Virus genome (UHGV): UHGV-0169486
Direction: 5' to 3' (one strand)
From: a virus
DNA: 50,405 nt
The notes under the pieces were generated by a model. The model was not told the DNA's origin, searched no databases, and saw only the letters and a program-made list of their open reading frames with translations. How positions within the stretch are numbered: position 1 is the stretch's first letter; each line of letters opens with the position of its first letter. The position numbers were made by a program, and so were the translations under genes. Positions 8,729 through 50,328 of this stretch are shown here, one piece after another.

Positions 8729-11700
8729 CCAGTATCCAAGTATTATCACGCCACCATTCGGCAGATTAACTCTAACACCGTTATTATTAAGAATTACGCG
8801 CCCGTCGCTCCTCGTCATGCTAAATGTTCCGCCGCCTTGAACAATAACACTACCTCTCACGGTAACGTTGTTAAATTCAGCTCTACCATCTTTATTAATC
8901 ATCCACCCTGCGGATCCTGACGCGTAGTTAGATGATTGTATCTGCTGTGCGATCTTAGCACTTGTGATTGTTGCGTCTTTGATCCATGCGTCGCGTATAT
9001 AGCAAGAGCCATTTTGAACGTAGAAAGGCGTTTGATATGTACCGTTTGCGGCAGTCATTAACACAAAGCGATCAACAAGGAAAATACACTGTGACTGAAA
9101 GTTAGTCCCGTCTCCAGTCAATCCAAGCGACATACCTGTAGCGTATTTCATGCCGTTGTTATCGGTGGCGAGCTTGATTGAATATGACGCATCAACGTTG
9201 CCTTTGAAATCGGTTAACGCTTTCGATGTTGTCTCGATCGCTGTTGTGTTCCCGTTAACGGTCACTTTCAGCTGATCAATTTTGGTTGATAATGCCTCGT
9301 CCGCCGTTGTCATGGCCTGCGACCATTCAGTGATGCTTGAGTTTACATCGTCGAAAGATGCCGATATTTGGACAAATTTTTCAGCACTTGATGCCTCGTG
9401 AGTAGCGAGCGCCGTTGATATATCTGTTATTTTTGCTGAAATATTTTCATTAATATTGGCTTCAAGTGATGCTATAGCTTCCGCGCGGGCCTGGGTTTCG
9501 TCCGCTATTGCTGTGTCGACCCTTGCTATTTCTGCTTTTGTTTTTGTCTGGCCTTTCCTGTATTTTGCCTCAATAACAGTGCTCATTTTACTTTGCGCTA
9601 TTGAGTTGTTGATAAGTGCAATCGAGGCGTTTTGCAGACTTGCTTTCGCCTGATCTATTTCGTCGCTGTTTTTATCAACCTCATTTTCAACAAGACCAAG
9701 CTCCGCACTGATACCTGATATTGCCTGAGCGCGCGCACTTGATTCGTCAGCGATAGCTTGATCCAGGCGGCTAACACTGGCATTTGTGCTATTTTCAAGC
9801 GTTGTTAAATCAGCTTTAACCTCTGTTATTGCGTCGCTTCTTGCCTGCATTTCATCTGATATTGCTTTATCGAGACGAGAAACGCTCGCATCAGTTTTGT
9901 TTTCCAGGCTGCTGATACTGGCGTTAACGTTGCTTATAGCCTCCGTTCTCGCCTGCGTTTCGGTTGCCATTGCTTTGTCTACTCGGGCTATTTCTCCTTT
10001 GATGTTTGAGTCCATCGTATTTATTTCGGCTGTGATGGTTTCCAGTGATTCCGCTGTCGCTTTTTTCTCCTCTGCGATAACGTTGTCGATGCGGTCAATC
10101 TGTGCCTTCGTTTCGTTGCGACCTTTCTTATATTGAGCGGTAAGAGTAACCCGCGTGTTAGTTTGAGCAAGCGAGTTATTGATCAGAGCAAGCGAAGCGT
10201 TTTGTAAACTTGCTTTTGTCTGTGCCAGTTCGTTGTTAACGTTTTCGTTTGATACCTCTAATGAGTCTATTCTTACCTCATGTTTGCCTATTCCATCGGC
10301 GTTTTCTTCGACTTTTTTATAAAGGTCTTCGGTGTCTTTTTTAAGTGTATCTGTGTCAGCTTTAAGGTCGTCGGTGGCTGCCTTAAGGTCGTCAGTAGCG
10401 GATTTAAGGTCGTTGGTCGCACTTTCTATAATATCAGTGCGATCGCCAAGATCTTTAATATCGCTAATCATCTCTTTGAATTGCTCTGATTCCATTACAT
10501 CCTTTGTAACGTAATCAGTGATTTCGTCAAAATCCTCTGTTGGCTTACCTGATGCCTCGACGAAATCAGACACACCAAAAGCATTACGAGTGCGAACATA
10601 AACGTAATAAGTGTGGCCCGTGTTCATGCCGCCAAAAGTCCACTGATAACCGCGCCCGGTAAACTGTGCCGACGTGGTTATTTTTGCCGGATCTGTGATC
10701 TGGTTTTCCCCTGCATAGTAGAATTCGTATGACGTATCGGTAGTAAGTGTGGTTTTGCTTATCGGGTACACGGTCGCCTGAAATACGCCGGGAACCCAAT
10801 TAACGCCGATCGGTGCTGCTGGCGCACCGATAACAAGGTCAACGATACTTTCTGCACCCTTCATGCCAGTATCATTTCTTCCGCGAACGCCTAAAGAATA
10901 CACGCCAGCTTCAATACCATAAAAATCATAACTATATTTCGTGGTTTCATAGCTTTTAACCACCGCACCATCTGCATTGTATATGCGGATCTCGAAGGTC
11001 ATGCGATGCGTAGTTGTCTGTGTTTCCCATGTAGCGCGGCATTGAACAGTCTCTGACGCAATGTTTATTACTTTCAGGTTTTCTATGTTCGGAACGCGGA
11101 AATGATTAAGCGTGTCGTTGTTGATTTCAAATATTGCGCCTTCATCGACTACCGCTTGTTTGTTCGGGTCGTGCTGCGCGGCCTCGATGGTGTACACGCT
11201 GTTGTTTTCAGTTTCGGCTACGCTGGTGATCCTGCATAAAACGGGTTTTGCTGCTTCGGTTGATACAGCAAAAACAGTCCCGTTCCGAATCCATGCCGGG
11301 GCCGCTGCCAGTGTGATTTTGTTCCCGTTAACACCAGTGATCTGATGTTTTTTAAATTTTCCATCGCTATCAAGAAGACTTATAGTGTCGCCAGCCGCAA
11401 TATATTCTGAATCGACCTTATCTACCGTTATCACTTTACCATTGTTCGCCACGATGCGACCGCCTAAGCGAGCGCCAGCGCGGTTATTGTCGAGGATCTC
11501 GATTATATCCCCTGGCGTAAAGTGAATTGCGTCACGCGCCATTTTAAACGTGAATTTTGACGGCTCGCGTTTTGCTGTTTCTATCAGCCATTTGCCCGCG
11601 CGGTGCGCTTGCCCGCGTGACGTACAGCCGAACGCCTCCATCGTGGTTTCGTTGTAACCATCGCGGGCGATTAGCTCATCATCTGCTACATACTCTTTTG

Positions 11701-46274: not shown

Positions 46275-46694
46275 TCAGAACGGGATATCGTCATCGAAGT
46301 CCATCGGCGGCGGATTATTCCCGTTATTATTCTGCTGCTGCGGCGGCGCTTTCTGCTGCTGGCCTTGCTGCTGGCCTTGTTGGTTAACGTTCATGAATTC
46401 AAATTCGTTAACCGCCACTTCTACCGCCGTCCCCTTAGTGCCGTCGTTCCGGTCATATTGCCGAACATCCAGGCGACCACTTACAACTATCTTTCCACCC
46501 TTGCGGATATGTGACGCTAATTTTTCCGCTCGCTCACCGAATACCAGGCAAGTGATCCACATCGTCCGCTTATTATCGCCGTAGCCATTCGTTACAGCTA
46601 ACGGAAAACTACCAATCGCCTTCCCGTTTTGCGTATAGCGTACTTCCATGTCGTTTCCGATATTCCCGCCAAGCGTGATTGAATTTAAACTCAT
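46275..46694 (-). CDS. ssb: single-stranded DNA-binding protein
   Basis: OB-fold-like N-terminus, Gln/Gly-rich linker, acidic C-terminal tail DFDDDIPF; TAATG coupling with erf. Confidence 0.85.
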   Translation of the reverse strand: MSLNSITLGGNIGNDMEVRYTQNGKAIGSFPLAVTNGYGDNKRTMWITCLVFGERAEKLASHIRKGGKIVVSGRLDVRQYDRNDGTKGTAVEVAVNEFEFMNVNQQGQQQGQQQKAPPQQQNNNGNNPPPMDFDDDIPF

Positions 46695-47335
46695 TAGCTC
46701 ATCTCCACATTAAGCTCTGCGATCCGGATGTCATAAACATCTTTTGCTTTAACTCGATGTTCCGATCCTTCCGGCAGTAATTTCCAGCATTTACCGAATA
46801 TTTCACGCAACTTGTTAGCGTCCGGCGCTTTCGCTGCTGCATCACAGAAACGCGCTAACACTTCATCAGGATTTGGCGGCGCTTTCTGCTGCTGCTGTTG
46901 TTGTTTTGGCTGGTTTTTCTGCTGTCTAGGCTGCTGGCCTGTCTGCTTACTGTAAGCATCAGTATCCGCGTCTTTTGCATCGTCTATGCAGAATAAACCG
47001 TTCAAAGCATATTTCCGCGCGTAACTTGATGTTGCTCCTGTTAGCTGGCTTGCATCCATTCCCTTCTTATTATCTTCCTCCCTTGCGTAAGCAGTTACCG
47101 CTATCGCGTCCTCACCGTCACTTAGTGTCGCCGTAGCTTTCACGTAATAGCGTTCGCCAATTAAGACGATTTCATCACTTACCGTCAGAGTGATATTTTG
47201 AAGCAGTGGTTTAACAGCCTCTAAAATATCTTCTGCCGAACGATAATTATAACCGCCAAAATTATTGCGCTGACTTTTCGGCGCATTCAGCGTCTGCTGA
47301 ATAGTCCACAGCTTTTTATGTAATTCTGTTTTCAC
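46694..47335 (-). CDS. erf: ERF-family single-strand annealing recombinase
   Basis: Recalled similarity to P22 Erf (LNAPK, YRS.EDILE.VKPLL, DEIVLIG.RYYVKATAT, GATSSYARKY, DDAKDADT); GTG start with GAGGGAGA RBS. Confidence 0.85.
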   Translation of the reverse strand: MKTELHKKLWTIQQTLNAPKSQRNNFGGYNYRSAEDILEAVKPLLQNITLTVSDEIVLIGERYYVKATATLSDGEDAIAVTAYAREEDNKKGMDASQLTGATSSYARKYALNGLFCIDDAKDADTDAYSKQTGQQPRQQKNQPKQQQQQQKAPPNPDEVLARFCDAAAKAPDANKLREIFGKCWKLLPEGSEHRVKAKDVYDIRIAELNVEMS

Positions 47336-48063: not shown

Positions 48064-48675
48064 TTATGGCAGGTTTACGATCTTCGCGTCCACCACCACG
48101 CCTATGATTTTCGATTCAGGATTCATGGGGATTGGTGGATACAGCGGGTTAAGCGAACGTAAAAGCCTTTGACCTCCATCAATAATCAACTGTTTAAACG
48201 TCGGTATTTGCCCTTCCTCAAGCTGTGCTATAACCAGCTTTCCATCGATAGCTGGCGCGTGTGGGTCAACAAGTATCATCGTCCCGGCAGGGATGCTCAA
48301 CCCCTGCGGCGCGTTCATTGATTCACCTTTAGCAACCAGCCAGTAACTATCATCTGAACAAATAACGCTAGTCGTAACGTGTGGTAATGTTGATCGCCTT
48401 GTATCTTCCATATTGTTTACTGTGTCCTTCCAGTCAACAACCGGGTAACTGCCTAAATCACGCTGCGGCGCTCCCGGTAACGTGTTAGAAACAGAATCAT
48501 CAATGACCATTCCATCATGGGTAACAGTGAACTGCCGACGACCAAGTGCCCGCATAATCCGCGCAATATCTTCAAGATTTGGCTCGCGGCGACCGTTAAG
48601 CCAGTGTGACAGGCCGCCTTTAGTTATCCCCATGAGATCCGCGAGTGAATCCTGGCTCATGCCTTGCGCTCGCAT
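48064..48675 (-). CDS. CI-like repressor (HTH plus LexA/S24 peptidase domain); 5' end possibly frameshifted
   Basis: HTH SQDSLADLMGITKGGLSHWLNG; S24 region with GESM and Lys; annotated ATG lacks RBS and truncates helix 1. Confidence 0.7.
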   Translation of the reverse strand: MRAQGMSQDSLADLMGITKGGLSHWLNGRREPNLEDIARIMRALGRRQFTVTHDGMVIDDSVSNTLPGAPQRDLGSYPVVDWKDTVNNMEDTRRSTLPHVTTSVICSDDSYWLVAKGESMNAPQGLSIPAGTMILVDPHAPAIDGKLVIAQLEEGQIPTFKQLIIDGGQRLLRSLNPLYPPIPMNPESKIIGVVVDAKIVNLP

Positions 48676-48908: not shown

Positions 48909-49017
48909 AAAACAAATATCACGCAACGGCGGGATCTGTTGAGCGGTCAGTCACTGCTATCTAATGCTAATGGGATGCCCGCCCGCGCGTTCACTCTAAC
49001 CATAGGAGAAAAACAAG

Positions 49018-49272
49018 ATGAGTATGCACATGATGAATGAAGCATGGAACGTAAAACTTAACAGCCCGATCCAAAAACTTGTCTTAATTGCGTTTGCAGA
49101 AAAGGCAGACAACAAAGGCCGCGCACATGCTTCACGCGAAGAGATCGCAAAAGTGTGCGAACTGCCACTGCATACTACTGTTGACGCATTAAATTCATTG
49201 ATCCGCAAAGGATTCATTAAACGCGCTGACGAATACGGCGACATTTATGACATTGCATTGCCGGAGGAATGA
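49018..49272 (+). CDS. winged-helix DNA-binding protein, first gene of rightward operon
   Basis: ORF track; AGGAG RBS; winged-helix-like segment. Confidence 0.6.
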   Translation: MSMHMMNEAWNVKLNSPIQKLVLIAFAEKADNKGRAHASREEIAKVCELPLHTTVDALNSLIRKGFIKRADEYGDIYDIALPEE

Positions 49273-49275
49273 TCT

Positions 49276-50328
49276 ATGAAATGGTTTAAGCATGATAGCG
49301 ATGCAAACCGCGATGAAAAACTTCAAAACGTTTTATTAGATTATGGCCTGGAAGGGTACGGGCTTTATTGGTATTGCCTAGAACTAATAACTTATGACGT
49401 AGATCAGCACAATCTAACTTTTGACCTACGACATGACGCAAGAATAATTGCGCGAAACGTCGGATCTACTGAAAAACGTATAGAAGAAATGATGAAATAC
49501 TTCATCGAAATTGGTTTGTTTGAATGTTCTCAAGGCCACATAACTTGTTTAAAGTTATTGAAAAGGCTGGACCAATCAATGACTTCTAAAAGCGCTTACA
49601 GGGCCGCCATAAACACAGCGAAGGAGCAATTAACATTAGAAAAGTTAATCAATCCAACACAAAAAGGTCATGACCGGGTCATGACCAGGTCAGGAAAGGG
49701 TCATGAATTAGAATTAGAAGTAGAAAAAGAAAGAGAAAAAGATATATACACTTCGTGTATTGTCGAAAATGAACAAAAAATGGTCAATCAGGATGGCGTA
49801 AACGAAGCGGCATTGCGTTGCCTGGCCTTCTACAACGACAAGGCAGGATGCAAATGTCGTGATGCTAAGCCATTCGTAGAACTACTGACAGAAACAAAAA
49901 CACGTAAAGCGTATACGGAGGATGAGATCACATTAGTGATTGAGTGGGCTTTAACGCAATGGCGTAGCCGTGGTGGAACACCTAAGCCTATCAACATTTG
50001 CCGGGTAACTAAGTTTGATGGGTATTTGGCTGATGCTGAACAATGGCGCAAGCTATCAGCTACTGTAAACGCCGCCGACGTAGTGGAAGCATTTAACAGC
50101 ACGTTTGATGGCCTGTTACCACCTGCTGAACTTGATCGGGATCTGGAACGTAAAATTTATGCGTTCTCTGACTACCTGAAAGATAAAAGCGTCAAAGGCT
50201 TTATCAGCTACTTCGAAGCGTTCAAAAATACGGCCTCAGATTTTTACTTCGGCAATGGCTTCACTGCGACACTAGATTTCTTACTAAAACCAAAAACGCT
50301 ACGCGACACCCGCGCTGGCGCTCTTTGA
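49276..50328 (+). CDS. replication initiator / replisome organizer
   Basis: N-terminal WFKHD...GLEGYGLYWYCLEL motif typical of phage replisome-organizer N-domain; iterons plus AT-rich tract inside gene. Confidence 0.75.
   Translation: MKWFKHDSDANRDEKLQNVLLDYGLEGYGLYWYCLELITYDVDQHNLTFDLRHDARIIARNVGSTEKRIEEMMKYFIEIGLFECSQGHITCLKLLKRLDQSMTSKSAYRAAINTAKEQLTLEKLINPTQKGHDRVMTRSGKGHELELEVEKEREKDIYTSCIVENEQKMVNQDGVNEAALRCLAFYNDKAGCKCRDAKPFVELLTETKTRKAYTEDEITLVIEWALTQWRSRGGTPKPINICRVTKFDGYLADAEQWRKLSATVNAADVVEAFNSTFDGLLPPAELDRDLERKIYAFSDYLKDKSVKGFISYFEAFKNTASDFYFGNGFTATLDFLLKPKTLRDTRAGAL
49666..49755 (+). other. putative origin of replication (iterons plus AT-rich region)
   Basis: Four GGTCATGA-type repeats at exact 11-bp spacing (49666, 49677, 49688, 49699) followed by AT-rich tract, inside initiator gene. 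Confidence 0.6.

Follow-up and report, generated by a model that had tools for sequence, protein, structure and literature searches.

An iteron array and an A-rich tract within an initiator gene

The virus genome UHGV-0169486, a stretch of 50,405 nucleotides (nt) analyzed here as a whole and hereafter called the window, carries near its right end a gene for a 350-amino-acid (aa) replication initiator, and within this gene lie four short repeats (iterons), phased at 11 bp, that run into an A-rich tract. The first-pass annotation of this DNA had proposed that repeats and tract form a replication origin of the lambda type, embedded in the linker-coding part of the initiator gene. The elements concerned, with the small gene that precedes them, are the following:

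49276-50328, + strand: replication initiator gene (350 aa), which contains the array and the A-rich tract
49666-49709, + strand: four 11-bp-phased iterons with core (G)GTCATGA(CC), from sequence, repeat finding and a periodic-array score
49705-49750, + strand: candidate DNA-unwinding element, A+T-rich and purine-asymmetric, from composition, stability and Tandem Repeats Finder (TRF)
49746-49760, no strand assigned: short palindrome ATACAC-TTC-GTGTAT, on the right-hand edge of the A-rich tract, that forms a hairpin when the DNA is folded in silico
49018-49272, + strand: gene for an 84-aa HTH_36 protein, directly 5' of the initiator gene and inside a cassette swapped among related phages

The GGTCATGA-type repeats begin at 49666, 49677, 49688 and 49699, every 11 bp as the first-pass annotation had it, a regularity borne out by the sequence itself, by TRF (11-nt period, 3.7 copies, 49666-49706) and by a repeat search that found the same family with spacings of 11 and 11. 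The period is exactly 11 bp, and three of the copies (49666, 49677 and 49699) are GGTCATGA, the one at 49688 being a degenerate GGTCAGGA; copies 1 and 2 of the window are perfect 10-bp palindromes (GGTCATGACC). The rest of the 50.4-kb sequence contains the exact GGTCATGA only at two isolated sites (13568 on the + strand and 31577 on the - strand). When a periodic-array score (four 8-nt units, every position, periods 8-25) was compared with 300 first-order Markov simulations, the array at 49666 was the top periodic array genome-wide with 22 of 24 matches, the highest score among the simulations being 20.

The adjoining 46-mer (49705-49750) is 78% A+T and 80% purine on the + strand, with a 6-bp periodicity (GAATTA, GAATTA, GAAGTA, GAAAAA and so on; TRF periods 6 and 12). 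By nearest-neighbour energy it belongs to the region that ranks third in the genome for low duplex stability (top 0.07% of 46-mers), and this is the sole place in the genome where both that A+T and that purine-asymmetry value are found (two overlapping 46-mers, starting at 49703 and 49705). The AT-rich string quoted in the first-pass annotation as immediately following the repeats is indeed there, at 49707-49750. The palindrome at the right edge, part of the swapped cassette, is kept in most, though not all, close relatives; it may serve as an accessory element, and is reminiscent of the palindrome to the right of the lambda AT-rich region.

The initiator is organized as a winged-helix N-domain (aa 1-~125), a disordered linker (aa ~126-175) and a P22-gp18-type C-domain (aa ~176-350). 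Its N-terminus matches the Pfam family Lin1244_N/DUF4373 (PF14297) over aa 3-87 (43.4 bits, cut-off 25) and is not homologous to Phage_rep_O, and its C-terminal 87 residues (aa 264-350) are 34% identical to the C-terminus of P22 gp18 (91 aligned positions, E = 2e-13). In PHROGs the protein falls into "replication initiation O-like" families; no NCBIfam model matches it, and a family-profile search of the sequences of solved structures returned spurious retroviral matrix matches only. An AlphaFold2 model of aa 1-156, which used 56 homologues, gives a winged-helix core with a predicted local distance difference test score (pLDDT) of 75-88, followed by predicted disorder at aa 126-156 (pLDDT < 50). 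Array and tract together occupy gene nt 391-475 (aa 131-159) of the open reading frame (ORF) 49276-50328, so that their placement in the linker-coding part, as first described, holds. Because this linker is predicted to be disordered, the peptide encoded there is likely under little structural constraint.

Selection on the repeats and their coupling to the DUF4373 domain

At the DNA level, the TCATG(A) cores are used in two or three reading frames, successive copies being read as xxT-CAT-Gxx (His) or xTC-ATG (Met). Across 17 distinct close sequences of the same allele (type A, see below), cores 1, 2 and 4 are invariant: variable positions number 2 of 32 in the cores (both in copy 3), 6 of 9 in the spacers and 35 of 150 in the upstream coding sequence, where they are mostly third codon positions. 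Copy 3 stands in the phase in which TCATGA would be read as TCA-TGA, and its degeneracy is thus explained by the in-frame TGA stop. The same avoidance is seen over 56 distinct loci, in which a phase-0 TCATG is followed by A in none of six cases; in the two remaining phases A follows in 50 of 73 and in 72 of 75 cases. Likewise, the "skipped" unit within 21-22-nt spacings lies in phase 0 in 31 of 32 cases and reads (G/A)TCAG(G/A)A, as does GGTCAGGA in the window. This stop-avoiding degeneracy indicates that the DNA motif is primary and that the coding frame only constrains it. The array is an example of a DNA signal that overrides, then yields to, coding, with every third copy forced to degenerate.

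To look beyond close relatives, viral contigs were scanned with the N-domain, which gave 80 loci, 37 of them distinct and divergent (N-domain 68-76% identical, C-terminal halves unrelated); the annotated examples among these distant loci come from Vibrio, Pantoea and Pseudoalteromonas hosts. In 35 of the 37, the 180 nt after the domain contain two or more TCATG motifs, and TCATG density reaches 15.2 per kb after the domain vs. 1.06 per kb in the rest of these loci. The spacings between motifs, 10-11 (n = 41), 21-22 (n = 17), 32 (n = 5) and 42 (n = 1), are multiples of the helical repeat (~10.6 bp), and the site consensus is A-R-TCATG-A-C. As in the window, the repeats are followed by an equivalent AAGATAAGATTAGATTAGATAAGA tract, the last copy typically running into TCATGCAAGATAAGATTAGATTAGATAAGA, i.e., an A-rich purine tract like that of the window. 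At the protein level, of 145 cluster representatives (50% identity), 90 have a peptide footprint HD..M after the domain; the whole DUF4373 family counts 2632 such representatives at E up to 0.001, the representative listing covering relatives at ≥50% identity only. Some DUF4373 initiators (L077:1800-2200, protein P0141) have an insert between the N-domain and the repeats, with HD..M-type repeats YVMMTSGYVMQDK after it; judged by its sequence only, this insert (YVYFIEK...IGRSKNP...) looks like a T5orf172/MUG113-type domain.

Within the phage group of the window, eight initiators were aligned, and all share the C-domain from ~aa 176. Type A (the window, MagusPhagus and mEp515) combines the DUF4373 domain with the GGTCATGA array. 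Type B (mEp021, mEp554, mEp010, mEp044 and mEp013) has the same genome backbone and a C-domain ~90% identical to that of the window, with its putative origin at the same linker position, but it differs in having an HTH_36 N-domain, four ~20-bp dyad iterons and another A/T-rich tract. These iterons, GGTAGTGTCAC...GTGACACC (GGTAGTGTCACAGAGTGACACC-like), are spaced by 22-23 bp and correspond to the ~18-20-bp dyads of lambdoid origins; they are located as follows:

L003:4563-4673, L004:3064-3175, L005:3062-3172 and L007:3060-3149: type B iterons, carried without annotation in the records

DNA homology between types A and B stops at window position 49012 and resumes at 49771 or 49807, so that the swapped cassette (49012 to 49770/49806) comprises exactly the small helix-turn-helix (HTH) gene and the N-domain together with the iterons and the A-rich tract. 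L047 and L048 have a third allele, with a DUF4373 domain 83% identical to that of the window by the collection scan (~80.5% over aa 1-112 by tblastn). Here, five ARCCATGR repeats (CCATGG type) at 11 bp replace GGTCATGA (L047:1920-1985 and the same region in L048), and are followed by a GAAGTAGAAGAAG tract of the same kind as the window tract. This third allele provides a specificity switch found in nature; amino-acid differences between the TCATGA and CCATGG alleles are concentrated at aa 83-95, in the predicted wing, which is only a hint that the wing is the reading surface. The allele pattern is the one classically seen with type-specific origin/initiator pairs, and it defines at least three replication-specificity alleles in the phage group.

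The candidates for the protein that reads the repeats can be narrowed by the same comparisons. The C-domain is common to alleles with different iterons and is therefore not the specificity determinant. The 84-aa HTH_36 protein shares 37% identity between types A and B. At least three variants of it occur (~60% identity), and these do not follow the repeat type: L021 and L028 have the GGTCATGA repeats alongside a small HTH protein of only 59.5% identity, in L048 an L021-like small protein goes with CCATGG repeats, and L047 lacks the small HTH gene altogether and retains an iteron array. This protein is thus probably not the iteron reader. The DUF4373 domain alone tracks the repeat type, and, with the HTH_36 protein decoupled and the C-domain shared, it is left as the specificity determinant.

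The origin reading and its alternatives

Taken together, these observations make it likely (probability roughly 0.8) that the array and the A-rich tract are the replication origin of this phage, situated within its own initiator gene in the part that encodes the linker. The anatomy of the locus, the homologies, the conservation of the cores, the association of the domain with TCATG and the co-variation of alleles, on which this reading draws, are results of computation; the steps by which such an origin would work can be proposed from them. The winged-helix Lin1244_N/DUF4373 domain of the 350-aa initiator would bind the (G)GTCATGA(CC) iterons. As the sites are 11 bp apart, i.e., about one helical turn, the bound proteins would sit on one face of the DNA and may form a cooperative nucleoprotein complex, which would destabilize the adjoining, unstable A-rich purine tract. 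The P22-gp18-like C-domain would then bring the gp12-like DnaB helicase, its presumed partner, onto the opened DNA, and host primase and polymerase would take over after helicase loading.

Lambdoid origins offer a measure for this reading. They have several directly repeated iterons, consisting of ~18-20-bp dyads about two helical turns apart, inside the coding sequence of an initiator and between its N- and C-terminal domains, with an easily melted A+T-rich tract directly on the promoter-distal side. Their gene is homologous to a proven initiator and has a helicase or loader partner, and the iterons co-vary with the N-domain. In the window, four directly repeated copies (predicted to be bound by the initiator) lie between the sequences for the winged-helix N-domain and the C-domain, the low-stability tract adjoins them on the promoter-distal side, a gp18-like C-domain goes with a gp12-like helicase, and three iteron/N-domain alleles occur on one C-domain; the sites, however, are 8-10 bp long and abut at an 11-bp period. 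The lambda-type reading of the first-pass annotation is thus supported as regards an origin inside the initiator gene (by the gp18-like C-domain, the linker position, the unstable tract and the co-variation of repeats and N-domain), but needs amending as to kind: the module is of the P22 type (a gene 18 initiator plus its own DnaB-like helicase) and not lambda O/P, the DNA-binding domain is Lin1244_N/DUF4373 and not Phage_rep_O, and the iterons are short and abutting.

In P22 the origin likewise lies in the middle of the initiator gene, with iterons and then an A-rich tract: the reference record places a rep_origin within gene 18 (nt 353-497 of the 816 nt of the gene, compared with 391-475 of 1053 here), and the gp18 C-domain and gp12 helicase are homologous to the initiator C-domain and helicase of the window. 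The two differ in the N-domain (Phage_rep_O, PF04492, in P22 vs. Lin1244_N, PF14297, in the window), in the iterons, which in P22 are longer and of unrelated sequence (..TCGGTAAAA.. type), and in gene order, since the P22 helicase gene directly follows gene 18 whereas small ORFs and a 377-aa exonuclease-like gene intervene here. As for lambda, its iterons, four as in the window, are ~19-bp dyads, each bound by an O dimer, and its A-rich tract shows purine/pyrimidine strand asymmetry with a palindrome to the right. Like the window, lambda has repeats, there initiator-binding, and an AT-rich tract in the middle of its initiator gene, O (PMC7466680). Lambda differs in using a P-type loader (O-P-DnaB), the phage of the window having its own DnaB-type helicase and no P-type loader, and no sequence homology was detected between the window initiator and lambda O. 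Organizer origins of phages of Gram-positive bacteria (SPP1 G38P, with oriL in gene 38, and the short iterons of SaPI/80-alpha) also lie in or near the initiator gene, with repeats that flank or precede an AT-rich region, but their protein families and hosts differ from those of the window phage.

Several points weigh against the origin reading. In the winged helix, helix 3 as predicted (aa 66-79, EKRIEEMMKYFIEI) is acidic, unlike a typical recognition helix, and the homologous fold of the DnaD N-domain serves oligomerisation, not DNA binding, so that the DNA-reading surface is uncertain. No helicase loader was identified, and our literature search found no binding or initiation experiment for this phage or for any DUF4373 protein. 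A minimum of cumulative GC skew does lie near 48.5-49.2 kb, but this is where the left and right operons diverge, so that it is not independent evidence for an origin.

Among the alternatives, the repeats could be real initiator-binding sites whose role is mainly regulatory (autorepression, a roadblock or handcuffing-like copy control), with replication starting elsewhere. Protein bound inside the initiator's own coding sequence would presumably hinder transcription, and the position of the replication start is read here from sequence alone; yet a pure operator needs no melting tract, while the repeats invariably have an A-rich tract of low stability beside them, here as in distant phages. In addition, the genome has no second GGTCATGA cluster or other iteron-like array beside an A-rich tract, and P22 has its annotated origin at the homologous position, which together leave this alternative improbable. 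Very improbable, in our view, is that the repeats are read not by the DUF4373 domain but by the 84-aa HTH_36 protein, which might be cII-like or regulatory, or one subunit of a split origin-binding protein. This protein does look like the N-domains found in other phage initiators (positions 1-71 match PHROG "replication initiation protein", and there are HTH_36 and DnaD_N matches), and its gene sits inside the cassette that is swapped along with the iterons, but its decoupling from iteron type in L021, L028, L048 and L047 speaks against it, as do distant loci in which TCATG repeats occur beside unrelated upstream genes.

Still less credence can be given to the idea that the whole feature is a by-product of a repetitive linker peptide (HD-x-VM repeats, then an EK-rich stretch) and has no function as DNA. 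While the HD..M footprint is frequent among the cluster representatives (90 of 145), and the A-rich tract encodes an E/K/D-rich peptide typical of linkers, an 11-nt period is not a multiple of three, and the DNA core stays the same across different reading frames. Furthermore, synonymous positions within the cores do not vary while those of the codons next to them do, the phase-0 stop avoidance marks the DNA motif as primary, and little protein-level constraint is expected of a linker predicted to be disordered. We rank lowest the possibility that copies 1-2 and the upstream A-run act on leftward (antisense) transcription as an intrinsic terminator or hairpin, or serve as a hairpin signal in single-stranded DNA. 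A 9-bp stem followed by TTTTTGTGTT can be drawn on the minus strand (stem 49686-49666, motif 49656-49686), the DNA fold has z = -3.85, and weak promoter-like sites occur on the minus strand at 49787-49739. However, the four terminator-like matches in the region compare with 2.3 expected in shuffles (not significant), the stem is shorter in relatives (GGTCATGATA) and reduced to 6 bp, A/T-rich, in distant loci, and copies 3 and 4, the phasing and the A-rich tract are left unexplained. An antisense terminator was rejected as the main explanation on these grounds, i.e., lack of significance, strength that is not conserved, and a remainder of the feature that it does not account for; an antisense RNA from the minus strand here is conceivable but unsupported.

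An origin within its initiator gene is an architecture of the lambda/P22 kind, already known, and conceptually adds little. The link between DUF4373 and TCATGA iterons, on the other hand, appears to be undescribed: searches of the available literature for DUF4373, Lin1244 or PF14297 together with replication found nothing relevant, and the gene, present in 26 of 5426 complete Escherichia coli genomes in RefSeq, is labelled there only as "Lin1244/Lin1753 domain-containing protein". The mEpimmI genome paper mentions no origin, iterons or replication-specificity alleles (PMC11893012). The origin reading would locate the origin for the mEpimmI group, which is common in the human gut, and would give a domain of unknown function in thousands of phage initiators a testable role, namely origin recognition with a defined motif. 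A simple sequence rule for origins would also be useful for phage annotation, for phage-derived replicons and for origin-based incompatibility or exclusion.

It is tempting to generalize further, and the balance of the evidence tips slightly toward Lin1244_N/DUF4373 being a widespread, unrecognised origin-binding domain, with a conserved ~8-bp TCATG(A/C) iteron, one-turn phasing and then a (GATWAG)n-type unwinding element. If this were true, origins would be predictable from sequence in thousands of phage and prophage genomes of Gammaproteobacteria, and an array so compact, with abutting sites on one helix face, would point to an initiator-DNA complex resembling a filament, unlike the lambda O-some on its widely spaced 19-bp dyads.

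Genome context

The window is a mEp021-like (mEpimmI) coliphage genome whose closest relatives are MagusPhagus (95% identity) and mEp515 (91%). A synthetic junction of its end and start (50405/1) aligns contiguously to mEp515, from which it follows that the genome is complete and circularly permuted; since the window end joins the window start, the helicase gene (1551-2972) lies downstream of the initiator gene. The neighbourhood of the initiator gene shows a lambdoid layout:

46275-46694, - strand: SSB
46694-47335, - strand: Erf
48064-48675, - strand: CI-like repressor
across the junction of window end and start, + strand: small ORFs
399-1532, + strand: 377-aa exonuclease-like protein
1551-2972, + strand: DnaB-like replicative helicase, 56% identical to P22 gp12

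No DnaA box occurs within 1 kb of the array, the nearest one-mismatch site being at 48624. A 21-bp tandem repeat (TTAAGGTCGTCGGTAGCGGAC, 2.7 copies, 80% matches) at 10362-10417 is unrelated to the replication region, and, like the other tandem repeats of the window outside the array, it neither adjoins an A-rich tract nor sits in a replication gene.

Downstream of the initiator, mEp021 encodes a 495-aa protein (L003:5653-7140) with repeated treble-clef zinc-finger (DUF4379), CapR and T5orf172 domains, and other members of the group have Bro-N/ANT antirepressor-like or other genes at that place. Given this difference in gene content, the site is a mosaic hot spot beside the replication module.

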